64,000 bases of DNA from Candidatus Helarchaeota archaeon (lineage in GTDB: Archaea > Asgardarchaeota > Lokiarchaeia > Helarchaeales > RDOG01), in NCBI GenBank assembly GCA_019058315.1, contig JAHPZH010000003.1:620451-684450 (forward strand), read 5' to 3'. The position numbers were made by a program, and so were the translations under genes. Under the pieces are notes generated by a model, which had not been told where the DNA came from, ran no database searches, and saw only the letters and a program-made list of their open reading frames with translations. Shown piece after piece: positions 26,166-42,177 of this stretch. Numbering within the stretch: position 1 is the first letter of the stretch; the number at the start of each line of letters is the position of its first letter.

Positions 26166-27134
26166 CTAAATTTCAGGTAGAAATATTTTATATAATTTTC
26201 TTAAAGATGGAATTCCATGGATTTCTTCTTTAAAAAACGGAATAGTAATGGGATTATACTGCTTAAATCTCTCTTGAATTATTTTTAACTCATGATCTTG
26301 AATTATTTTTTTGGCTTTACAAAATTCACAGTCAGTACTTATTGGAAAAATTTTATTAACAAGCAATTGTCCAATTGGAATCTCATAATTATTTATTTCG
26401 TTTATTAGTCGAGCGGTTTCATTAATACTTAGAGTTTCAGGGATAGTCACAACATTAAATCGAGTTGTTTTCTCATTTGATAGCAAATTCTTTGTTCTAA
26501 TAGCCCAATCTTTTATTTTTTCCATGAATTCTGCAGGATCATCAAACCCTTCTTTATCTTCTTTCTTCTTTCTCCTAAAAAAACCTGCAAGTTTTTCAGC
26601 AAAAACACCCACCTTTTGTCGTAATTGAATAAGGCGCATTGCCGTACCTTTCATGAAATCAGGAAAAGATAAAAAACGGAGAGTATGACCTGTTGGGGCA
26701 GTATCAATTATAATTAGATCAAAATCTGAATGCAGGTTAAAAGTTCTATTTAAATCAATAACACTAAATCCATCAATCATACCCGGAACTAATTCTAGTG
26801 AATCACCCAAAATAAATTTATATTCTGGATATTTATCTAGATAAGGTTGATAGTCTTTGGCAACTTGAGCAGTTTCTATTTCTTTTACAGATAGTTTAGA
26901 AATTCCATCAACTGATACTATTTGTCCACCCGTTAAATCTTGGTCAAAGATATCGCTTAAAGAATGTGCTGGGTCTGAGGATATCAATAAAGTTTTAGTT
27001 TTATGTTCTGCTGCCCAGAGTGCAGTTGCTGAAGCTAAGCTGGTCTTTCCAACACCACCTTTGCCACCAAATAATAATAGATGGCGACCATTTTCCTGTA
27101 AAAATTTTGCAATGGAGTCCATTTTATCATCCAT
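26166..27134 (-). CDS. ArsA/Get3(TRC40)-family ATPase, single domain, Get3-like
   Basis: GKGGVGKT, SSDPAHSLSD, DTAPTGHT, VNK, C-terminal CEFC (CxxC). Confidence 0.88.
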   Translation of the reverse strand: MDDKMDSIAKFLQENGRHLLLFGGKGGVGKTSLASATALWAAEHKTKTLLISSDPAHSLSDIFDQDLTGGQIVSVDGISKLSVKEIETAQVAKDYQPYLDKYPEYKFILGDSLELVPGMIDGFSVIDLNRTFNLHSDFDLIIIDTAPTGHTLRFLSFPDFMKGTAMRLIQLRQKVGVFAEKLAGFFRRKKKEDKEGFDDPAEFMEKIKDWAIRTKNLLSNEKTTRFNVVTIPETLSINETARLINEINNYEIPIGQLLVNKIFPISTDCEFCKAKKIIQDHELKIIQERFKQYNPITIPFFKEEIHGIPSLRKLYKIFLPEI

Positions 27135-28149: not shown

Positions 28150-31100
28150 ATGTTATTTATTTACATTATGAATTCAAGATTTCTTCCATTTTGGGAAATT
28201 CCACAATATAAATTAAAAAAGACATATGATTTATTAAGAGCTGAATTTCAAAACGCTTCCAAATACATTATAAGTGAATTCAAGAAGGATAGAATCAAAG
28301 GCTTTGGTAATCTGGAGAGGACTTTTTGGGGTTTATTGACAGCTTATTGTTTAAATAAAGTAAAGGATTTAAATCCGAAAAGTATAGAGAAATTTATTTT
28401 TCAATTTCGCTCATCAGGGGGAGGATTTTTTTCTGAAGGTTCTAATATTCCAGATGTTCATTCAACTTTTTTTGCAATTTATAGTCTAAGAATTTTAGGG
28501 TTTGACTTAAATGAGGATGAAAAACAAATAACAGCAAAATTTTTATTACAAAATCAAAGAGGAGATGGATTTTCCCATTGTAATGATCGTAATTGTAAAA
28601 AATGTGGGGGAAAGACATTAATTGAATCAACTTTTTATGCAATTTCATCATTATATTTATTGGATAAGTTAAATGAACTTGATTTAAACCTTGCTTCAAA
28701 GTATCTATCAAAAAGATTACCTAAGAGTAATATTAATAACGCTCTAATTATTCTAGCAGACATTCTTGTTGAAGGTTCAGCTCGAATAGATGAAAATGTA
28801 TCCTATTTATTAGATTTTCAAACAGATGACGGTTGTTTTTGTGAGAAGGAAGAGGGAGAAGAAGATCTCGAAAACACTTTTTGGGTCATTTCTTGTTTGC
28901 GAGCCATAAAACTTAATTTTAATAGAGGGTTAGTTTATGATAAATTTCTCAGAAAATTAAGAAGAAAAGATGGGGGATATAATAAACAACCTCTTAATAC
29001 AGAATCAGATTTGATCGATACTGCTCATGCTATTGCTATTTATTCATTAATAATTCCTGATTTAGTAGACCAAATCGAAAATGACATTTTAGGTTCAATT
29101 GATTTACAAAAAGAAGTATATTTAATCAATCTAGCAGATAAAAATTTTGTTGATGAAAAATTTGTATTAAAGATATTAGGAGGACTTCAAGAATATAAGT
29201 GGTTTACTGTTGAACTTATTCATTCTAAAGACCTAATTGATAGTTTCTTAAAAAAACTTGGTTCAAGTGAGAGAGAGTTAACAAGCAAAATAATCAAAAA
29301 ATTAAAAAAATTGCATAATATCTCCATAGATTTGGGTGAATTCGCAAAATCACTCAAGATTCCTGTTTCAAAGGGATCAAGTTATTTACCATCCGAAGAA
29401 GTCGTTAAAAACAGTATAAACAAATTATTAGATAATAAATTCATTATCGGAGAATTAGAAGAAGCTAGAAAACGATTAAAGAAAACCTCATATCTTAAAC
29501 TCCAATTCATTCCTAATTATGTACTAGTTCGGAAACAAAAATTCGATTTTGAAGAAATAATGAAAGAAAGGGAGAATCTATCAAATGTAGATAAGCATAT
29601 TAAGGAATTAATAGATGCTGCTCTTAAAATTCCTGATGAATTTAATATGGAAATTAAAAATTTATTAGATATTGATGAGGTAGAACTGGCCCGGGAGAAG
29701 TTAGAGGGGAGTTTCGATCAAAAAATAAATGATTTAGAGGATTATGATAAATCTGTCAGATTCTTAAAAGATAGCCTTAGATATGTTAAAGTTGAAATTT
29801 TAGATTCTTATCTGAACTGGTTAGCTATTTCCAAAAACGTTGAAAATGAATTAGAAGGTCTTAAAAAAATATTAGAAAGAAATATATTAGAAAAAGAAAG
29901 ACTTATTGATGCTTATAATAAATTAAATGAGCTCGTAAATTATGTGGAGGAAAATATTAGTAAGTTTAATGAAGATATGGATAATTTAAATGCATTTTTC
30001 ATTGATACATGTAGACTCCATAATTTGGATAAAAAGAAACAGGATATTATAGTTAAAGCTTCAACTTTAGAAGATAATATTAAAAAAATTGCGGGAGAGG
30101 TCCAAGATAGGTCTAAAGAAATTTCCCATATTACAAATAAAGTAAAATTCTTAAAGAACGTAATTGTTTCTGAAGATTTAAGTATAAGTAAAAGAATTGT
30201 GACTCAAGAATTAAGAGAAAAATTACAACCATTTGAGGGTTGGTTAGAAAATCAGTGGAATACAAAAAGACATTTGACTCATCAAAAATTAGAGACTATT
30301 CGTTCAAAGATACATAAAAGAGAAGAATTAAAAAATATTATAGCATCAAGGAAAAAAACCTTTAAAGTAAAACTTGAGGAGATTCCAAGCCAAATTCAGC
30401 GATTTGTAGATCAAAACAAATATGATCTAGCTAATGAAAAGCTTAATAGTTCAATTAATGATATATTAGAATTCCTCTCAAATACGGCTCAATTTATTCA
30501 AGATTTCATTCAGGATACGAATAAATTATTAGAAGAATTTGAATTAACTGCTGAAGATATTCCCTTATTATGGCAAGACTCTATGGAACAGATGAGAGAA
30601 GACTTGGAGAAGATGAAAATTGAAGTTTTGAAACAAATTATTTCAGAACAAGAAATGGATAAGAAGAATCAACTTGACGCCACAATTAACAAACATATCG
30701 ATGATGTAAGTAAAAAGCTGACAGAAATCTCACAATTAAGTAAAATTGACTATGAAAAAATAACAATAAATATGAAGGATCTTTTAAAAAATAAGATTAA
30801 AGAGATAGAAGATCATTGTAATAGCGCGAACAATGAGATTTCTACATTTGTCAAAAATACATCTAAATCATTTCCTAATTTTCAAGATACAACTAATATT
30901 AGTATTCATAAATGGCAGACTTTCCTTGATTCATTACCAACAGTTTTCAATCAAGTTAATGAGCAGACTCTTTCAGATTTCACTATAAATGTTATAAAAT
31001 CATTATCTAGACCGGAGAATGGTGGAAGGGTAGATTTAGAGGAAATTAGTAGAATTTTAGGACTAAATGTTGGGCAAGTAAAGAAATTGTTGCAAAAATT

Positions 31101-32571
31101 GATTTCTGTTTCGAAATTGGAGGCTAGAATAGAAGAAAAACAAATGGTTCCCTTATATGTAGAAAATAAGATGCAATTAGAGTTTGAAAAATTAATTGTT
31201 CAATTTCAAGAAGAGCTTGATTTAAATCTTGTAAAATTTCTGAATTTTTTTGTTACATCATATGAAAGAAAACAATTAGATAATAATGAACCTGAAATCC
31301 GTGAGCGAGTTAAAGAATTTAAGAATAATATCAATAATTATGATGTTGAATTAAAGGTAAAATTTGAGAATCAAATAAAAAATATCTATAATGAACCATT
31401 ATTACTCGATTGGGGGAATTTAAAAAATAAATTAAATAGCAAATTAGAAGGTGTTATTCGAATTTTAAACACCCGAAATGAATATAAAGCTTCATTTTTA
31501 GAAAAAATTCAAAATTTTAGGGATAAATTGGAAGATATAACTAAGACTATAGTTGATAAAATAGAGGATAGAAAAGAATTACCAAAATTAATAGATAAGT
31601 TAAGTGCAAAAGAAGATGATCTAAGACTAGCTATTATAGACCAAAGACATATTTTTAAAAATAATATAACCCAACTTACAAATGATATAGAGCATTTTGA
31701 TGGGATAATTGAAGATGCACATGCAAATTTTATTTTTGAAACTGATAAAATCTTGTTAGATTTAAAAAATTTAAAAAGAAAATTAGAGGAGAAAATAATA
31801 GAGAAACAGTGCGAATCCGAAAAAGAAAATTTAAAGGAAAAAATACTAAGTCATACTGAGGAATTCAAAGAATTAGTAGATGTAATGGATAAAGAGGTTT
31901 ATAATATAATTGAAACTGGAAATTTATCAGAAGCAGCAACCACATTAAAACAATCTTATGAAGAAAATAAAAATTATATTAAGACCGCGGATAATTCTAT
32001 TTCTGAATTCATTAAAATGAATTCTAGAGTTTATCGCGGTTTTAAAGATACTTGCGTTTTAATCTTGAGAGATTGGAATACATTTGAATTAGAAAATCAT
32101 TTAATGAAAGCATTTACTGTTCTTCAAGATCGAATCGTTATTCGTAACATCGAATATGCTGAACGAGCTTTTCATGGAAATCGAATTAAAATTGATGTGC
32201 TAGCTTCAAAAATATCTATGAAATCAAAAATATTTAAAGAAAGATTATTTGATATTCTAGGAACATCAGAAGAATTAACTGGAAAATATGATGTTAAAAC
32301 TAATGAATATATCTTTCGACCTGATGAGGAACCTAAGACGGTTATACCCACTACCCCATCAATACCAGCTGTAACTAAAAAGGGTTTTTCTGATATTGTA
32401 TCCCAAATAGCACCTGTTTTTACAATTATAGCTGCATTTGCTACAGTAACATGGTATATTTATAGTTCAACACAAAGTCTAGTTGTTGCTGTTCTAGTTC
32501 CGAGTATTGGATTACCTATTGCCTTTATATTTATGTATTTATATTATCGTAAATTTAGGAAAAAGGATTAA
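28150..32571 (+). CDS. 1473-aa protein: prenyltransferase/terpene-cyclase-like alpha-alpha barrel, several winged-helix (PCI-like) domains, long coiled coils, C-terminal 2-TM anchor
   Basis: QW-like repeats (QFRSSGGGF, NQRGDGF, FQTDDGCF, RRKDGGY) each followed by an xxTFxAI helix. WH-like GRVDLEEISRILGL...LEARI and RIKIDVLASKISM...GKYD. Two hydrophobic helices then RKFRKKD. Confidence 0.7.
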   Translation: MLFIYIMNSRFLPFWEIPQYKLKKTYDLLRAEFQNASKYIISEFKKDRIKGFGNLERTFWGLLTAYCLNKVKDLNPKSIEKFIFQFRSSGGGFFSEGSNIPDVHSTFFAIYSLRILGFDLNEDEKQITAKFLLQNQRGDGFSHCNDRNCKKCGGKTLIESTFYAISSLYLLDKLNELDLNLASKYLSKRLPKSNINNALIILADILVEGSARIDENVSYLLDFQTDDGCFCEKEEGEEDLENTFWVISCLRAIKLNFNRGLVYDKFLRKLRRKDGGYNKQPLNTESDLIDTAHAIAIYSLIIPDLVDQIENDILGSIDLQKEVYLINLADKNFVDEKFVLKILGGLQEYKWFTVELIHSKDLIDSFLKKLGSSERELTSKIIKKLKKLHNISIDLGEFAKSLKIPVSKGSSYLPSEEVVKNSINKLLDNKFIIGELEEARKRLKKTSYLKLQFIPNYVLVRKQKFDFEEIMKERENLSNVDKHIKELIDAALKIPDEFNMEIKNLLDIDEVELAREKLEGSFDQKINDLEDYDKSVRFLKDSLRYVKVEILDSYLNWLAISKNVENELEGLKKILERNILEKERLIDAYNKLNELVNYVEENISKFNEDMDNLNAFFIDTCRLHNLDKKKQDIIVKASTLEDNIKKIAGEVQDRSKEISHITNKVKFLKNVIVSEDLSISKRIVTQELREKLQPFEGWLENQWNTKRHLTHQKLETIRSKIHKREELKNIIASRKKTFKVKLEEIPSQIQRFVDQNKYDLANEKLNSSINDILEFLSNTAQFIQDFIQDTNKLLEEFELTAEDIPLLWQDSMEQMREDLEKMKIEVLKQIISEQEMDKKNQLDATINKHIDDVSKKLTEISQLSKIDYEKITINMKDLLKNKIKEIEDHCNSANNEISTFVKNTSKSFPNFQDTTNISIHKWQTFLDSLPTVFNQVNEQTLSDFTINVIKSLSRPENGGRVDLEEISRILGLNVGQVKKLLQKLISVSKLEARIEEKQMVPLYVENKMQLEFEKLIVQFQEELDLNLVKFLNFFVTSYERKQLDNNEPEIRERVKEFKNNINNYDVELKVKFENQIKNIYNEPLLLDWGNLKNKLNSKLEGVIRILNTRNEYKASFLEKIQNFRDKLEDITKTIVDKIEDRKELPKLIDKLSAKEDDLRLAIIDQRHIFKNNITQLTNDIEHFDGIIEDAHANFIFETDKILLDLKNLKRKLEEKIIEKQCESEKENLKEKILSHTEEFKELVDVMDKEVYNIIETGNLSEAATTLKQSYEENKNYIKTADNSISEFIKMNSRVYRGFKDTCVLILRDWNTFELENHLMKAFTVLQDRIVIRNIEYAERAFHGNRIKIDVLASKISMKSKIFKERLFDILGTSEELTGKYDVKTNEYIFRPDEEPKTVIPTTPSIPAVTKKGFSDIVSQIAPVFTIIAAFATVTWYIYSSTQSLVVAVLVPSIGLPIAFIFMYLYYRKFRKKD

Positions 32572-32576
32572 TTTCT

Positions 32577-32774
32577 TTGGAGTTCAATTGGAGACATCCG
32601 AAATTTATTGCCGTATTATCAGGCGTTCCCACAGGTTTGGTTGTAGCGATTTATATTTTTATTACAGGAGATGAAAGTTTAACTATATGGTTTTTTGGCA
32701 TTTCATTACTTATCGGGTTAATAATTGCTATAATACTTATTTATCATAAATCTACAAAAAATAAAAATGGATAG
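32577..32774 (+). CDS. Small 2-TM membrane protein
   Basis: Two hydrophobic helices and a basic tail. Gaps of 5 nt and 8 nt to its neighbours. Confidence 0.6.
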   Translation: MEFNWRHPKFIAVLSGVPTGLVVAIYIFITGDESLTIWFFGISLLIGLIIAIILIYHKSTKNKNG

Positions 32775-32782
32775 GGATTCTA

Positions 32783-33244
32783 TTGCAAGGTAAATTTTTT
32801 AATGACTTTAATATTGGAGATAAATTCATTACAGCTAGACGAACTTTAACTGAATATGATTTAGAAACATTCTGCAATCTTGTTTGGTTTAATTCGAGTA
32901 TGTTCTTTGATGATATTTATGCAAGTGAAGAAATGCCCTATAAATCAAGAGTGTTTCCAGGACCTCTTATCATCCCTTTAGCAGTAGGTTTATTTTTAAA
33001 ATTAGGAATATATGAACGAACTATAATTGCATTGCTTGGAATTCAAAACATGAAGTTTAAAGCTCCTTTACGTATTGGCGATACGATGCAAGTCGATGTA
33101 GAAATTTTGGATAAGAAGGATTCAAAGACCTATCCAGATAGAGGAGTTTTAATCGTCCAATTTATTGTTAATAAAGCGCTACCAAAGTCTAAAAAAGAAT
33201 TTATTATGAGTTTTGAAATGGCTCATATGCTTAAAAAAAGATAA
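32783..33244 (+). CDS. MaoC-like hotdog-fold dehydratase
   Basis: FNDFNIGDKF...RRTLTEYD, RVFPGPL, FKAPLRIGDT. Confidence 0.85.
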   Translation: MQGKFFNDFNIGDKFITARRTLTEYDLETFCNLVWFNSSMFFDDIYASEEMPYKSRVFPGPLIIPLAVGLFLKLGIYERTIIALLGIQNMKFKAPLRIGDTMQVDVEILDKKDSKTYPDRGVLIVQFIVNKALPKSKKEFIMSFEMAHMLKKR

Positions 33245-33286
33245 AAACAATGATATTTATTTTAATTATATTCAAATCTTTAAGTT

Positions 33287-34117
33287 GTGATTCCGAGATT
33301 GCCAAAGAAAAAATCTGAAGATGACGAACTCATGGAGTTAGGGATTGGAGTAGGTCAGGATCAATTTTATTTAAATCTACCATATTTAGCACTTATTGAC
33401 ACTGATTTATGGAAAAGGAGAAATCCTTGGTCCTTTGATATTAAAACCCTTTTACCTGACTTTTTTGAACGAATGAAAGGAAATTTGAAATTTAAAATTT
33501 TAGGTAAAGCACTCCTCTCGGCAACGCAACTCCATCATGCAAAGATATTATGGTTAATTTATAGAGAAGAAAAGGAAAAAGAAAAGCAAGAAATAGAAAA
33601 GAAACAGAGAGAATCAAAGGAGCTTCCAAGCCTAAAAGTTCCAATCCGTCGTTTTTCAGAAGAAATAAGTAAAGAGGAGCTAATGGATCAGTTAATTAAG
33701 GTTCTACTCGATGATAAAAAAAGGACTGAACGAAGATTAAAGCGAAAGAAAAAAGATAAGGAAAAACAAATCCGAGAACAAAAACGCAAACGCCGTGTAC
33801 CTTTAATAGAGACCATGAAACCTAAGGACTTTGATTATGAAGTAGATGCTGATCGGATGAATGTTAAAGAACGAAATGAACAAGTATACAGTATGGCAAT
33901 TAAATTATTGAAAGAAGCTGCAGAAGCGGGAGAAGATGAAATTAGGTTTGAAAAACTTTTAAAAGCGCTTACAGAAATGGCATCAGATCCAAGAATATTA
34001 ATGGCACGGGTTCTTCTCTCAGTACTGTTTCTTATTTCAGACGGTCTTTTGTATGCTGAACAAGATATTGACACAAAAAGAATTTTTATAATGTTTCCAA
34101 TTGAAGCAGCAGCTTAA
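33287..34117 (+). CDS. scpA: Kleisin ScpA
   Basis: NPWSFDI...FFERM...GKALLSAT N-terminal kleisin motif. C-terminal WH with VLLSVLFL...LYAEQ. Adjacent to scpB and near smc. Confidence 0.8.
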   Translation: MIPRLPKKKSEDDELMELGIGVGQDQFYLNLPYLALIDTDLWKRRNPWSFDIKTLLPDFFERMKGNLKFKILGKALLSATQLHHAKILWLIYREEKEKEKQEIEKKQRESKELPSLKVPIRRFSEEISKEELMDQLIKVLLDDKKRTERRLKRKKKDKEKQIREQKRKRRVPLIETMKPKDFDYEVDADRMNVKERNEQVYSMAIKLLKEAAEAGEDEIRFEKLLKALTEMASDPRILMARVLLSVLFLISDGLLYAEQDIDTKRIFIMFPIEAAA

Positions 34118-34145
34118 TTTTTTTAAAAGGATATGAGCTAATAAT

Positions 34146-34991
34146 ATGCCAAATTTAGAACATGTTAAACTCGTGGAAGCTAGTCTTTTTATTGCAGGAC
34201 GTTCAATTAAAACGGATAATTTACTCACGCTTATTGATGGGAAAGGGAAAGAGGAATTAAATAACATTATAGAACAAATCTCAAAAAGTTTAGAGAAACG
34301 TAATAGTTTTATCGAAATCGTAAAAATTGAAGACGAATATATGATGCGGGTTAAGCCTGCAATTAGAAAAGAGTTAGGGGATATTGAGACTAGAAAATCG
34401 CTTCCGGATGAATTTATAAAAATATTAGCAATAATTGCTATGAAACAGCCTATTAAATATGGAGACATAAGGAAAATTTATTCTGGAAAAAATCTAAAGG
34501 AAAATGTCTCGGAATTATTGAGGAAAGGATTTATTCAAGTTAGAAAAGAAAAAAGAACTAAATTCTTAACAACTACACCTCATTTTGCTAATGTTTTTAA
34601 TTTAGATCCAGCAAATATGAAAAGTGAAATTCTTAGAATTCTAACAAAACGGCTTTCACAGCGTGCAGTTAAAGCACCAGAGATGATTAAGAGGGACGAA
34701 AAAGAGGATAAGGAAGTTTTAACGGAAGTTGAAATAAAGGAAATTGAAGAAAAATATTATGATTTAATGGAAAAGTTAGAAAAAGAAAGGGAAGAGGAGA
34801 GAAAACGTTTAGAAGAAGAAGAAAAAAAGAAAGCTGAAGAAGCAGCACTTATAAAAAATCTAGTTTTAGATCCCATGGCAAGTATATTTAAGCCTAAAAA
34901 AGAAGATAAAGAAGAAGATATGCCTAAAAAGGAAGATAAAGAAGAAGAAAAGGAAGTCACAGAGAAAAATTCTGAAATAAAAGAGAGTTAA
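34146..34991 (+). CDS. scpB: Kite subunit ScpB, paralog 1 (charged C-terminal extension)
   Basis: LVEASLFIAGRSI, LAIIAMKQPI, ELLRKGFI, TTPHFANVFNL. Confidence 0.85.
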   Translation: MPNLEHVKLVEASLFIAGRSIKTDNLLTLIDGKGKEELNNIIEQISKSLEKRNSFIEIVKIEDEYMMRVKPAIRKELGDIETRKSLPDEFIKILAIIAMKQPIKYGDIRKIYSGKNLKENVSELLRKGFIQVRKEKRTKFLTTTPHFANVFNLDPANMKSEILRILTKRLSQRAVKAPEMIKRDEKEDKEVLTEVEIKEIEEKYYDLMEKLEKEREEERKRLEEEEKKKAEEAALIKNLVLDPMASIFKPKKEDKEEDMPKKEDKEEEKEVTEKNSEIKES

Positions 34992-37470: not shown

Positions 37471-38502
37471 ATGGCAAATGAGAAAGAACAAGACGAAGAT
37501 GCAGTAGAATCTCAAGACATTGAGGATGAAGATGAAGAAATAGAAAAAATGTTAGAAGAATTAGAGGAAGAAGAATTAGAAGAAGAAGGATTAGAGAAAG
37601 AAGAAATAATGGAGACCCAGCCAGAGATTAAAACGGATTTGGAAAAGGATATAGATATAAAAGACATTGAAATTACCTCAGAGATGGAACTCCCTATTCA
37701 TGAACAAGAATCACCACCTAAGACACAAAATTCGACTGAAGAAACATCAATAATGGCTCAGGTTTCAAAAGCTAAAGATTTAGAACAATTAATTGAAACA
37801 GAGGAACAAAAAAGCATTGAAGGTGAGGAATCCTTAATGTCTGATCAAGCACTTGATGAATTAGAAGCCATAGAAGATAAATCAGCTAAAGATCAATTTA
37901 AAGACCTTCATGCATATATTGAAGCCATTTTATTTGAGGTTGGAAAACCTCTTAAAGAATCAGAACTTGTTGACTTATTATTTGAAAAATATAAAGCTGA
38001 TAGAAATAGGATTAGATGGGGGTTAAGAATAGTAATGAGAGCTTTAGAAGCCCAGAATAGTTCAATCCAATTAATAAACCCCACTAAGGATTTTTGGTCT
38101 TTTCAACTTCACAGAGAGCTATCAGATGACTTTTTAGACAAAATAGAGAAATTTATCCCTGAAGAGGAATTTATTTCTAAAAGAGAAACCGTATTTTTAA
38201 CCGAAATAGCTTATAGACAACCAGTTACTACAACAGATATATTAAAGATTTTAGGTGCTGATGGATATGATTATATACGCTCTCTAGAAGAAAAAGATCT
38301 TATATTTATGACAAAAGAAGGGCAATCTAATATCTTAAGAACCACCGAAAAATTTGCACAAATTTTTGGTTTTGATACACAATTAAGAAGTTTAAAACTT
38401 CAACTAGTTTGGAGGCTTAAAAAATTAGCTAGATCCGAAGCAGCAAGAGATAAAGCTACTTTAGCTCTATTAAAGAAAGATAGAGAAAAGTACGAATCTT
38501 AA
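37471..38502 (+). CDS. scpB: Kite subunit ScpB, paralog 2 (about 140-aa acidic N-terminal extension)
   Basis: YIEAILFEVGKPL, LTEIAYRQPVT, LEEKDLI, RTTEKFAQIFG. Directly upstream of smc. Confidence 0.85.
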   Translation: MANEKEQDEDAVESQDIEDEDEEIEKMLEELEEEELEEEGLEKEEIMETQPEIKTDLEKDIDIKDIEITSEMELPIHEQESPPKTQNSTEETSIMAQVSKAKDLEQLIETEEQKSIEGEESLMSDQALDELEAIEDKSAKDQFKDLHAYIEAILFEVGKPLKESELVDLLFEKYKADRNRIRWGLRIVMRALEAQNSSIQLINPTKDFWSFQLHRELSDDFLDKIEKFIPEEEFISKRETVFLTEIAYRQPVTTTDILKILGADGYDYIRSLEEKDLIFMTKEGQSNILRTTEKFAQIFGFDTQLRSLKLQLVWRLKKLARSEAARDKATLALLKKDREKYES

Positions 38503-38607: not shown

Positions 38608-41600
38608 ATGGAAAAGATGACATTTATCAAACGCATCGATATGACAGGATTTAAGTCATACGGAAGAGGAACTATATCTTTAGGATTTGGTCCTGGATTT
38701 ACGGGAATAATTGGACCAAATGGTTCAGGAAAAAGTAATATAGTAGATGCAATTTCCTATACATTAGGGGAATTGAGCTCGAAAAGTATGCGAGCGAAGG
38801 ATTTAAGGGATCTCATATATTCAGGAACTGGAGGTGATAATCCTGCCGATTTCGCTTCCGTTAATATTGTGTTTGATAATTCCGATAAAAAGATTCCGGT
38901 TCCTTTTGATGAAGTTATGGTACAAAGAGATATAAAAAGAAAGGGAGGAGGTTCCGTTTATAGGTTTAATGGGAAACGATCTACTAGAACTGAGATCATG
39001 GATAAATTAAAGATTGCCAATATTGATGTAAAAGAGGGGTTTAATTTAGTGTTGCAGGGGAGAATTGCAGAACTTGCTGCTATGAATCCCGATGAACGTA
39101 GGGAATTAATTGAGGATTTAGCGGGGACAAATGAATTTGATGAAAAAAAAATTGCGAGTATAAGTGAATTAGAAAAGGCTGAAATAAAACTAAGTGAATT
39201 AGAATTATTAATTAATGAAACCGAGACTAATGTAAAGAGATTGGATAAAGAAAAAAAAGATGTGGAAGAATGGGAGCTAGTTGTAGAACAAATATTTGAT
39301 AATAAAACCCAACTTTTATCTTTTCGACATGGAAATTTAGTTGAAGAATTAAAGGGATTCCAAACCAAAAGTGACGAGTTACTTAAAGAAATAAAGGAAG
39401 TAGAAGAGGAGAAAAATAAAAAAATTAAGATCTTAGACGAAGTAAATAAAAGTATTGAGGATGTCAAAAATAAAATAAATAAAAAACAGACCGACCTTGA
39501 AAATGTTCAAGCAGATATTTCTAATTTAAAATCAACCATTACTGGGCTCAAAAGGGATGTAACACATAGAGAAAAACGAATTAAAGAAATGGAGCAAGAA
39601 CAAGAAGATACTAAATCAAGAATTCAAAATATTAAAAAGAATCAAGACAAATTAGGAAGTGAAGTTACAGATATTGAAAGTAAGTTGGGTGTACTTGGAA
39701 AAAAGAGGGATGAAGAAAGAGCAGAACAAGAAAGATTAAATAAATTGATTCAAAAAAGTCAAACGCAATTTGAAACTCTTCAAACCCGTGCTACGGAAAT
39801 TCAAAAACAAATAGAAATGAAAACTAAAAAATTAAATAATTTAGAAATTCAAAAATCAATGAAATTATCTGGAGCAGAAATAAAACAAAATACATATGAT
39901 TCCAGAAAGCGTGAATTGGAATCACGTAAAAGAACATATAATCAGAATTTAGAATCCCTTAAAGCTTTAGAATTAGAAATAGTTCAATCGAAAGAACTAC
40001 TTCAAGTAGCATCACATAGAGTTGACTCATCAGATTCTAAAAGATCAACATATGAAGAAAGATTAGAACAGTTATATGATTTAAAATCCAAATTGGAAAA
40101 AAACACCTCATCTCTTGAAGCAAAAATTGACACTATTCAGAGTTTTCAAGGAGGAGATACGAATCCTGTAATTAAAAAAATTATGGGAAAAAAGGAAAAA
40201 AATGAAATTGTTGGTATTATCGGCAGATTTGGCGATTTAATAAATCTTGATGAACTTGATCCTAATGATAAAGCAGCACTTATTCCTTATTTGAATACTA
40301 TTATTGTTGATAGCACATTAACTGCTGCTGAAGCAATTCAAATTCTTAAAGATGAGCAAATAGGATATGGTTCTTTTATCCCTCTAGAAGAATTAGGAGA
40401 AATAATAATTGGACAAAATCTTCCATTTAAATTCTTGGAGGATCTTGACAGAAAGATGAAGGCAACGGCATTTATTTTTAATGATACTGTTGTTACTGAA
40501 AATCTTCATTCAGCAATTGATCTATTTATTAAAAATATTGAAGAAAAGAAATATGGAACTCAAATTCTGACTTTACAAGGTGAGAAAATCTCTAGAGAGG
40601 GGATTATTTCTGGTGGTGCTAGTTTAGAATTTGCTGAAACTCAAATATTAGATTTAAAAAAGAAATTAGAAGAACAGCAAGGAGAAGTTGGCAAGATTAG
40701 TGAAGAACAGATTATAACCAAACAAAAACTTGCTAAATTAAATGACTTATTAGCTGAAGTTAAAAGAAAACAAGAAAATGTAAAACAGAATATAAAGAAT
40801 AAACAAGAGAAAATGGATAGTATAACTAAGCTGATTGAGGAAGATAAATTTCATATCAATAGAATTGAGCAAGAATTAGAATCTTTAAAATTGAATATTG
40901 AAGCGATTAATACCTTATCAGCGAATATTGAACGTGAAAAGTCGGAAACTGAAACATCTGTTGCAGTACTTAAAGAAGATAAGAAAGTTATTGACGATGA
41001 GATTGAAAAAACTGAGATGACTAAGCTTTTAGATTCTGTTCGTAAGGTAGAAAAAGAATTATCGAAATTAGAAATTGATTATAGTAAAAATGAAGCTATA
41101 AAGAGTGAAAAATTACAACAGATAAATGATATCCTCGATAAAAATATAAAAGAAAAAGAGTCTCAAGTTCAAAATCTAATCAAAGAAATTGAGCAAGCAA
41201 GAAAAGATATTGAAAAATTTAATAGTGAAAAAAATCAAGCTGAAAAAGATTTAACTGCTAAAACAAAGGGTGAAGAAGATTTTAAAAAGGAAATTCAAGA
41301 ACTTCAAGATTCTATTAGTACAAAGTTAAACGAGATAGAAGCGAAGCGAAATGAAAATACTGCTCTTAATAGAAGAATAGAAAGATTACGTGAACAAGTA
41401 GGTGAAATCAAAGTCAATCAAGAGAGAGTAAAAACAGAATTGAGTAATGTCCAAAAACAGATTGAAGAAGAAGAGATAGAATTGATTCAACTTAAGAAAG
41501 AGGTTGATGAAAAAAAGCTTGAAAGCAAAATTCGAGAACTTTTAGACAGAAAACGACAGCTTGAACCAGTTAATGCCCTTGCTATAAAGCAGTTCCATGA

Positions 41601-42177
41601 AGCAAATCAAAGATACCAAGATTTAAAATCCCGACACGAAGAACTTCAAGAAGAAAGAAAAATTATAGTTGATTTTATCAATAAAATAGAATATGAAAAA
41701 GAAAATGTATTCATGAAAATTTTTAACGAAATTAATAAAGAATTCGGTAAAATCTTCAAAATGATCGCTGGAGGTAATGCTTGGATGGAGTTGGAAAATG
41801 AGGAGAACCCATTTGAAGGTGGAATCACTATTAATGCCGAACCGCATGGTAAAAAAGTAAAATCTGTAAGAGCTATGTCAGGAGGCGAAAAATCATTAAC
41901 TGCATTATCTCTAATTTTTGCAATGCAAAAAGTCGAGCCTTCACCATTCTATATTTTAGATGAGATCGATGCTGCATTAGATGTCATGAATGTGAGACGT
42001 GTAGCAAAAGTAATTGAGAAGATGAGTAAAGAATCTCAATGTATCCTCATTACTCACAGAGATATTGCCATGAGATACGCCAATTTACTTTATGGTGTTA
42101 CAAATATAAAAGGGATCTCAAAAGTGGTTTCTGTTGAATTGTCTGATGAAAGCACACTTCGTGAATTAAGCTCTTAA
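38608..42177 (+). CDS. smc: Chromosome segregation protein SMC (condensin-type)
   Basis: GFKSYG, GPNGSGKSN, Q-loop VLQG, hinge GIIGRFGDLI...TLQGEKISREGIISGG, MSGGEKS, YILDEIDAALD, ITHR. Confidence 0.97.
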   Translation: MEKMTFIKRIDMTGFKSYGRGTISLGFGPGFTGIIGPNGSGKSNIVDAISYTLGELSSKSMRAKDLRDLIYSGTGGDNPADFASVNIVFDNSDKKIPVPFDEVMVQRDIKRKGGGSVYRFNGKRSTRTEIMDKLKIANIDVKEGFNLVLQGRIAELAAMNPDERRELIEDLAGTNEFDEKKIASISELEKAEIKLSELELLINETETNVKRLDKEKKDVEEWELVVEQIFDNKTQLLSFRHGNLVEELKGFQTKSDELLKEIKEVEEEKNKKIKILDEVNKSIEDVKNKINKKQTDLENVQADISNLKSTITGLKRDVTHREKRIKEMEQEQEDTKSRIQNIKKNQDKLGSEVTDIESKLGVLGKKRDEERAEQERLNKLIQKSQTQFETLQTRATEIQKQIEMKTKKLNNLEIQKSMKLSGAEIKQNTYDSRKRELESRKRTYNQNLESLKALELEIVQSKELLQVASHRVDSSDSKRSTYEERLEQLYDLKSKLEKNTSSLEAKIDTIQSFQGGDTNPVIKKIMGKKEKNEIVGIIGRFGDLINLDELDPNDKAALIPYLNTIIVDSTLTAAEAIQILKDEQIGYGSFIPLEELGEIIIGQNLPFKFLEDLDRKMKATAFIFNDTVVTENLHSAIDLFIKNIEEKKYGTQILTLQGEKISREGIISGGASLEFAETQILDLKKKLEEQQGEVGKISEEQIITKQKLAKLNDLLAEVKRKQENVKQNIKNKQEKMDSITKLIEEDKFHINRIEQELESLKLNIEAINTLSANIEREKSETETSVAVLKEDKKVIDDEIEKTEMTKLLDSVRKVEKELSKLEIDYSKNEAIKSEKLQQINDILDKNIKEKESQVQNLIKEIEQARKDIEKFNSEKNQAEKDLTAKTKGEEDFKKEIQELQDSISTKLNEIEAKRNENTALNRRIERLREQVGEIKVNQERVKTELSNVQKQIEEEEIELIQLKKEVDEKKLESKIRELLDRKRQLEPVNALAIKQFHEANQRYQDLKSRHEELQEERKIIVDFINKIEYEKENVFMKIFNEINKEFGKIFKMIAGGNAWMELENEENPFEGGITINAEPHGKKVKSVRAMSGGEKSLTALSLIFAMQKVEPSPFYILDEIDAALDVMNVRRVAKVIEKMSKESQCILITHRDIAMRYANLLYGVTNIKGISKVVSVELSDESTLRELSS

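Follow-up and report, generated by a model that had tools for sequence, protein, structure and literature searches.

Lokiarchaeia are, to our knowledge, the only Asgard archaea in culture, and the class is central to models of how the eukaryotic cell originated. Several described systems come close to the protein reported here. The beta subunits of protein prenyltransferases are alpha/alpha toroids, and in RabGGT-beta the catalytic zinc is held by D238, C240 and H290. PCI-type winged helices serve protein-protein assembly in the proteasome lid, the COP9 signalosome (CSN), eIF3 and DDRGK1-UFL1. Golgins such as giantin, golgin-84 and CASP are C-terminally anchored coiled-coil tethers of eukaryotes (PMC4707255). 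Here we analyze a giant gene of Candidatus Helarchaeota archaeon (class Lokiarchaeia; assembly GCA_019058315.1), whose 1473-amino acid (aa) product combines a toroid, winged helices, long helical segments and a membrane hairpin. It lies within a stretch of 64,000 nucleotides of contig JAHPZH010000003.1 (positions 620,451 to 684,450, forward strand), which we refer to as the window.

A sequence-only reading of this gene had proposed a long membrane tether or scaffold, and had suggested a link between chromosome and membrane from its apparent co-transcription with the condensin genes scpA and scpB. The first proposal fits the anatomy found here, but the second is not supported: the linkage is kept neither in a sister genus nor in the order or the class. 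We consider it probable (roughly 0.6) that the giant protein is a non-enzymatic, membrane-anchored scaffold that faces the cytoplasm and is independent of the condensin genes.

Results

The giant gene is a conserved gene and not a chance open reading frame (ORF); its start may lie at 28168, as relatives begin at the position of Met7. The ORF, domain order, zinc-type motif and C-terminal hairpin noticed earlier were all recovered, and the parsing by structure prediction and Foldseek that had been proposed as a check yielded the toroid together with four winged helices (WH; residues ~320-358, 359-461, 953-1001 and 1340-1388). The parts of the gene are as follows (AF2, AlphaFold2).

28150..32571, + strand: giant gene, toroid-headed membrane-anchored rod protein (P0001), 1473 aa
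28228..29106, + strand: alpha/alpha toroid, residues 27-319, 12 helices (PF00432, AF2, Foldseek, VIA-align)
28576..28605, + strand: zinc-knuckle-type motif H143-C144-x4-C149-x2-C152, an insert in the second Gly-Phe loop
29107..29532, + strand: WH1-WH2, two winged helices, residues 320-461 (DSSP of the AF2 model)
29938..31152, + strand: repeat unit A, residues ~597-1001, helical segment plus PCI-type WH3 (953-1001)
31189..32313, + strand: repeat unit B, residues ~1014-1388, helical segment plus PCI-type WH4 (1340-1388)
32386..32547, + strand: C-terminal membrane hairpin, residues ~1413-1466, two hydrophobic helices with a 5-residue turn and Lys/Arg flanks

The head derives from the prenyltransferase-beta fold; the known active site is gone and a zinc-knuckle-type motif has been added. 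A phmmer search of the whole giant protein against PDB gave zero matches; PF00432 is found, with 57.6 bits where the cut-off is 26.5. The AF2 model of residues 1-470, computed with 23 homologues from across the class as input, reaches a pLDDT of 84 and a pTM of 0.83 and shows the toroid followed by two winged helices. When this model is compared to PDB with Foldseek, the first 50 matches are all protein prenyltransferase beta subunits (RabGGTase/GGTase-III, FTase and GGTase-I). The same subunits take the six best places in VIA-align comparisons to representatives (Z 22.7-25.4, root mean square deviation about 3 Å, 255-277 residues), with 2.8 Å over 262 residues for the match at Z 25.4. Squalene and other class II terpene cyclases follow at Z <=18.7 and other toroids at about 15.

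To map residues we relied on a colinear MAFFT alignment with three RabGGT-beta-like proteins; a sequence-profile alignment to RabGGT-beta slipped between repeats and was not used for this purpose. In the colinear alignment five Gly-Gly-Phe loops are in register with the RabGGT-beta-like proteins, the third loop is deleted in the giant protein, and the HCx4Cx2C motif appears as an 8-residue insertion in loop 2. H143, C144 and C149 are invariant in all family members examined, across the class, and the fourth position is either C or D. The columns of the zinc ligands (PD-V-C-YSWW and DxxH in the enzymes) hold D239, E241 and D290 at the Asp, Cys and His positions of the giant protein; its relatives have T/S, F/E/D/N and T/E there, i.e. 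the positions are unconserved. The alignment thereby bears out the earlier remark that a DxC...H zinc triad is not evident. The basic stretch GRPxKKPD, which binds the diphosphate, aligns with CFCEKEEGEED in the giant protein and is neutral or acidic in the relatives. As for a partner, PF01239 (the PPTA alpha subunit) gives weak repeat matches in the genome, the best of 29.1 bits in a 1045-aa frame, and none of these is linked to the giant gene.

Behind the head, alpha helices make up approximately 800 aa, in stretches of 27-76 residues with short breaks, and 10 of 16 helical segments carry a heptad periodicity beyond that of shuffles (p<0.05). Of the coiled coil of about 1000 aa that had been described at first, the helical nature stands, and a single continuous coiled coil is hypothetical. 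Residues ~597-997 and 1014-1383 align in hhalign with a probability of 99.1% (E 1.1e-18, 367 columns), and a profile comparison of WH3 with WH4 gives E 4.2e-9. Since units A and B are thus homologous at the profile-profile level, the rod arose by tandem duplication of a unit of ~370 aa that comprises a helical part and a PCI-type winged helix. Its AF2 model (residues 461-1473) has a local pLDDT of 79 and a global pTM of 0.35.

The winged helices point to PCI-type and DDRGK1-type proteins. The top PDB match of the WH3 profile is a DDRGK1-UFL1 fusion (E 7.8e-7, summed over several winged-helix repeats), with which it shares a GGRV-x-[LI] motif (GGRV at residues 958-961); Rpn6 and other PCI proteins come next. 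The same fusion is the top match of the WH1-2 profile (E 0.0024). The WH4 profile matches CSN2 and eIF3e, and the profile matches to PCI proteins (CSN2, eIF3e, Rpn6) lie at E 0.006-0.03. PF01399 (PCI) reaches 15.4 bits in P0001 itself (E 0.022), under the cut-off of 22 bits; it matches five of eight family members, down to E 2e-7, and a paralogous relative at 29.2 bits is above the cut-off. Foldseek returned no match at E <= 0.001 for the 1013-residue rod model; the weak matches that remain (E >= 0.006) are, with few exceptions, PCI subunits from the proteasome lid, CSN or eIF3.

The chain ends in the membrane hairpin, which is present in all orthologues of ~1440-1510 aa, and conservation is uniform over the full chain with the hairpin included. 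The giant protein has no N-terminal signal sequence. Because of this, and of the Lys/Arg residues on both flanks of the hairpin, its bulk is probably cytoplasmic.

Taken together, we propose that the hairpin would be inserted post-translationally and would leave some 1400 residues on the cytoplasmic side. The PCI-type winged helices would serve protein-protein assembly, with the duplicated units forming a long platform, and the toroid with its zinc knuckle could act as a binding head for a partner, either a protein or an isoprenoid. The gene would do so independently of the condensin genes.

Distribution of the family

A search with the single protein found relatives confined to Asgard metagenome-assembled genomes labelled Helarchaeota, Lokiarchaeota or Promethearchaeota, and their NCBI names are 'prenyltransferase/squalene oxidase repeat-containing' or 'hypothetical'. 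With a profile of the rod the giant gene was detected in 75 of the 301 Asgard genomes sampled, all from one class: 75 of the 78 genomes of class Lokiarchaeia carry it, with 68/68 in family f4 and 5/7 in family f5, and within the order it occurs in six of seven genomes. The rod profile found nothing at E <= 1e-8 in ~220 Asgard genomes of other classes. Orthologues are mostly present once per genome, in frames of ~1440-1510 aa.

Wider searches agree with this restricted range. Among 1.8 billion cluster representatives an exhaustive profile search retrieved ~55 clusters with full head-plus-winged-helix matches, below which generic prenyltransferase repeat proteins alone are found, and the ESM Atlas returned the family's own cluster alone. 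A metagenome scan with the single giant protein gave no match; when an alignment was used, it gave one distant locus, with a convergent M28 peptidase downstream and condensin genes absent.

The source genome (G000) also encodes two shorter paralogues, which have the toroid and PCI-type winged helices but not the hairpin:

G000:C2:134627-138472 (L005:8784-12494): paralogue of 1236 aa
G000:C3:730734-733916 (L006:8558-12352): paralogue of 1264 aa

Paralogues of the C3 type end in a conserved domain of ~75 aa (MEYKDFEI...FIDG...W.GEL) for which there is no Pfam match and which looks roadblock- or longin-like. A 708-aa ORF (L006:12496-14622), located 144 nt downstream of the C3 paralogue and on its strand, clusters with the giant family, has a weak PCI match (E 0.004) and could represent a split rod or a partial duplicate. 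Elsewhere in the genome, a PF00432 toroid match (G000:C5:1041428-1041724) is located within an open frame of 14,439 codons, which may encode an extremely large protein.

Linkage to the condensin genes

In the window the giant gene is followed by a short run of genes on the same strand, at gaps of 5, 8, 42 and 28 nt exactly as first reported for a two-helix membrane peptide, MaoC, ScpA and ScpB. The features are:

32577..32774, + strand: 65-aa ORF with two hydrophobic helices, 5 nt 3' of the giant gene
32783..33244, + strand: MaoC-like hot-dog hydratase, 153 aa, after a gap of 8 nt
33287..34117, + strand: scpA, 276 aa, 42 nt after the MaoC gene
34146..34991, + strand: scpB, 281 aa (PF04079, E 4e-25), 28 nt after scpA
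38608-42177: smc, to which the condensin cluster that opens with scpA-scpB extends

The MaoC-like protein matches PF01575 at 25.5 bits, just below the cut-off of 27 bits, and has NCBIfam hydratase matches as well. ScpA has no Pfam match and is identified by ScpA in PDB entry 6ivh (E 1.7e-6). Farther 3' of scpB come a Rag-like GTPase encoded on the opposite strand, another paralogue of ScpB, and SMC.

This arrangement is not kept in G304, a sister genus within the same family. Its giant gene and MaoC (65% identity; L064:8699-9169) are on contig C157, and a cluster as in the window, scpA (59% identity)-scpB-GTPase-scpB2-smc, is on contig C51 with a divergent gene before scpA. The split places the breakpoint precisely within the 42 nt that separate MaoC from scpA. 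In nine other genomes (the sister genus and eight further ones), among them every other carrier of the gene in the order, ScpB and the giant gene are on different contigs. Within ~5-10 kb of the giant gene, ScpA, ScpB and SMC were found at 0 of 25 orthologue loci and 0 of 5 paralogue loci examined; likewise, no homologue of ScpA, ScpB, MaoC or SMC was seen within that distance at 20 class-wide orthologue or paralogue loci and the two paralogue loci of the source genome. Conserved synteny with scpAB and smc had been named beforehand as one of the tests of the chromosome link, next to interaction or DNA binding, and it is absent from the 25 loci and from the contigs of the nine genomes. The adjacency of the giant gene to scpA-scpB is a lineage-specific rearrangement, and scpA-scpB is the start of a separate, conserved condensin cluster.

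MaoC is the sole neighbour in the window that also lies beside the giant gene in the sister genus; the 65-aa ORF has no counterpart there. What the window newly offers is a condensin neighbourhood that is incidental and a pairing of giant gene and MaoC that is shared inside the family. At other loci the neighbours are a DEAD-box helicase, an aminotransferase, an FAD/CCG oxidase, a C13 peptidase, TGT, Lsm, Rpb8 or the thermosome, often in convergent orientation. The lack of a common theme suggests that the gene usually stands alone.

A scan for bacterial-type promoters and terminators gave nothing above shuffles, and such a scan is not applicable to archaea. An AT-rich, TATA-like stretch is located ~25 nt before scpA and is unlike the upstream region in the sister genus; as evidence of an scpA promoter it was dismissed, the region having a GC content of 27-31%. 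Contigs from four DNA runs matched here as short fragments alone, and none of them spans the MaoC-scpA junction.

Some further observations concern the surroundings of these genes. In the sister genus a 132-aa zinc-ribbon ORF on the opposite strand separates the giant gene from MaoC, and MaoC is followed by a large surface protein of 1487 aa (L064:4235-8698, G304:C157) with an N-terminal signal or anchor, a long Asn/Thr-rich and probably glycosylated extracellular part, one transmembrane segment and a cytoplasmic wHTH tail. The two ScpB paralogues of the window (34146-34991 and 37471-38502) differ from each other, one having an acidic N-terminal extension of ~140 aa, and both are present at equal spacing in the sister genus (G304:C51). 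Divergent from the giant gene and ~1 kb upstream of it, the window encodes an ArsA/Get3-type ATPase (26166-27134, - strand; PF02374, E 5e-73). Its orthologue in the sister genus (L067:13342-14292, G304:C164; E 6e-103) is ~4.6 kb from a hairpin-less paralogue and not from the giant orthologue, and a survey of 22 other loci for ArsA homologues close to the giant gene turned up none. A link of this neighbour to tail-anchor insertion is only an idea.

Discussion

The strongest competitor is a membrane-tethered enzyme, whose toroid would be active through a relocated His-Cys-Cys(-Cys/Asp) zinc site, for instance by activating a thiol so that an alkyl or prenyl group passes to a protein or lipid, while the rod merely positions it. 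The class-wide invariance of H143, C144 and C149, with C or D as a fourth ligand, speaks for such a site; the fold is nearest to zinc-dependent protein prenyltransferases, and judged by repeat register the motif should share a face of the toroid with the catalytic-ligand loops of those enzymes. Nonetheless, neither the canonical Asp/Cys/His ligands nor the basic residues for the diphosphate are present, and their positions are unconserved; knuckles with four ligands, rich in Cys and placed in an inserted hairpin, typically hold structural zinc; and a PPTA-type alpha-subunit partner was not identified in the genome beyond the weak PF01239 repeat matches, so that we consider an enzyme unlikely. 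The winged helices lead to another reading, already raised from the sequence as an alternative, in which an anchored array of the UFL1/DDRGK1 kind gives the membrane a docking site for a large cytoplasmic machine, such as a ribosome or translocon, or for a system of ubiquitin-like conjugation. It draws some support from the top rank of the DDRGK1-UFL1 fusion for both WH3 and WH1-2, with the shared GGRV-x-[LI] and with PCI proteins next in line for WH3, from the membrane anchor and long helices, and from other proteins of the source genome that match the UFL1 family PF09743. On the other side, Ufm1 was not found and the sole UFC1 match is below cut-off in a genome that is 94% complete. Moreover, matches of single winged helices are marginal (17.3 and 12.3 bits), the giant protein itself matches neither PF09743 nor PF09756, and its anchor is at the end opposite to that of DDRGK1. 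We regard a role of this kind as distinctly improbable. The PF09743 matches of the source genome are at G000:C11:225662-226219, C1:161036-161518 and C3:1256620-1257984, two of them above cut-off; UFL1-type winged-helix arrays seem common in this genome.

Least probable of all, in our view a very long shot, is the tether between chromosome and membrane, in which the giant gene shares a transcript with those for the kleisin ScpA and the kite protein ScpB and the winged helices of its product bind DNA or SMC-ScpAB to hold the chromosome at the membrane. Its appeal derives from the window, where the giant gene shares the strand of scpA-scpB at gaps of 5-42 nt with the full condensin cluster directly downstream, and from the presence of four winged helices. 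Against it stand the different contigs of giant gene plus MaoC and of scpA...smc in the sister genus, with the divergent gene before scpA; the separate ScpB contigs of the eight further genomes; and the 25 orthologue loci with no condensin gene nearby. The winged helices, too, belong to the PCI/DDRGK1 type, for which protein-protein assembly, and not DNA binding, is the known role, and ScpB is a weak, low-ranked match of the WH3 profile (E 0.32).

Several points weigh against the scaffold interpretation that we prefer. The role itself would follow by analogy from domain types only, and a catalytic metal site might account just as well for H143, C144 and C149 being strictly invariant. The rod's global shape is not established by a model with a pTM of 0.35. 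With regard to the condensin genes, the synteny survey leaves out the closest relatives (P0002-P0004, 61-79% identity), and the common strand and short gaps in the window mean that read-through transcription into scpA-scpB may occur here.

The head is nearest to eukaryotic prenyltransferase beta, and the winged helices of the rod, of the PCI/DDRGK1 type, are likewise a typically eukaryotic module. Should the giant protein organize something on the inner side of the membrane, Asgard cell architecture would gain a component that is concrete and open to testing. A bolder version, to which we assign long odds, is a golgin-like and Asgard-specific capture device: the anchored rod would hold the degenerate prenyltransferase-beta head out into the cytoplasm, where it would grip a membrane or a protein that is lipid-modified or bears a Cys (e.g. 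one of the numerous small GTPases of Asgard archaea), as a prokaryotic forerunner of tether-based membrane organization and of the eukaryotic protein-prenylation fold. The idea of condensin attached to the membrane, on the other hand, is based on a juxtaposition of genes particular to one genome and is not to be carried forward, which is a negative but useful outcome.

Comparison with known systems

Literature (full-text) and database searches revealed no published description of the toroid/PCI-winged-helix/hairpin architecture, in agreement with the impression, formed from the sequence, that it was not recognizable as a characterized one. Prenyltransferase beta subunits (RabGGTase/GGTase-III, GGTase-I and FTase) share with the giant protein a six-hairpin alpha/alpha toroid and Gly-Gly-Phe loops in register. 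They differ in having the Asp/Cys/His triad and the basic diphosphate residues, whereas the giant protein lacks both, has loop 3 deleted and an insert in loop 2, and fuses its toroid to ~1150 more residues and a membrane anchor; an alpha-subunit partner was not identified. PCI proteins (Rpn5/6/7, the COP9 signalosome and eIF3; PF01399) likewise place a winged helix after a helical segment, but the giant protein has two such units in tandem and a membrane anchor, with no MPN partner or known lid-like complex.

Golgins are comparable in plan: both are large cytoplasmic helical proteins with a C-terminal anchor and a distinct N-terminal end able to capture a partner. There is, however, no kinship in sequence or fold, the helices of the giant protein are broken (27-76 residues) with winged helices between them, a dimeric coiled coil would be hypothetical for it, and no GTPase-binding site is known in it. 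DDRGK1 (UFBP1)-UFL1, the scaffold of the UFM1 ligase at the endoplasmic reticulum, resembles it in its membrane anchor, its long helices and its repeats of PCI-like winged helices, although the anchor of the giant protein is a C-terminal hairpin, neither DDRGK1 nor UFL1 has a toroid head, and the likeness is at the level of domain types only. Overall, the modules each come from known fold families, and eukaryotes (golgins, DDRGK1) already offer the general idea of a helical scaffold with a C-terminal anchor.

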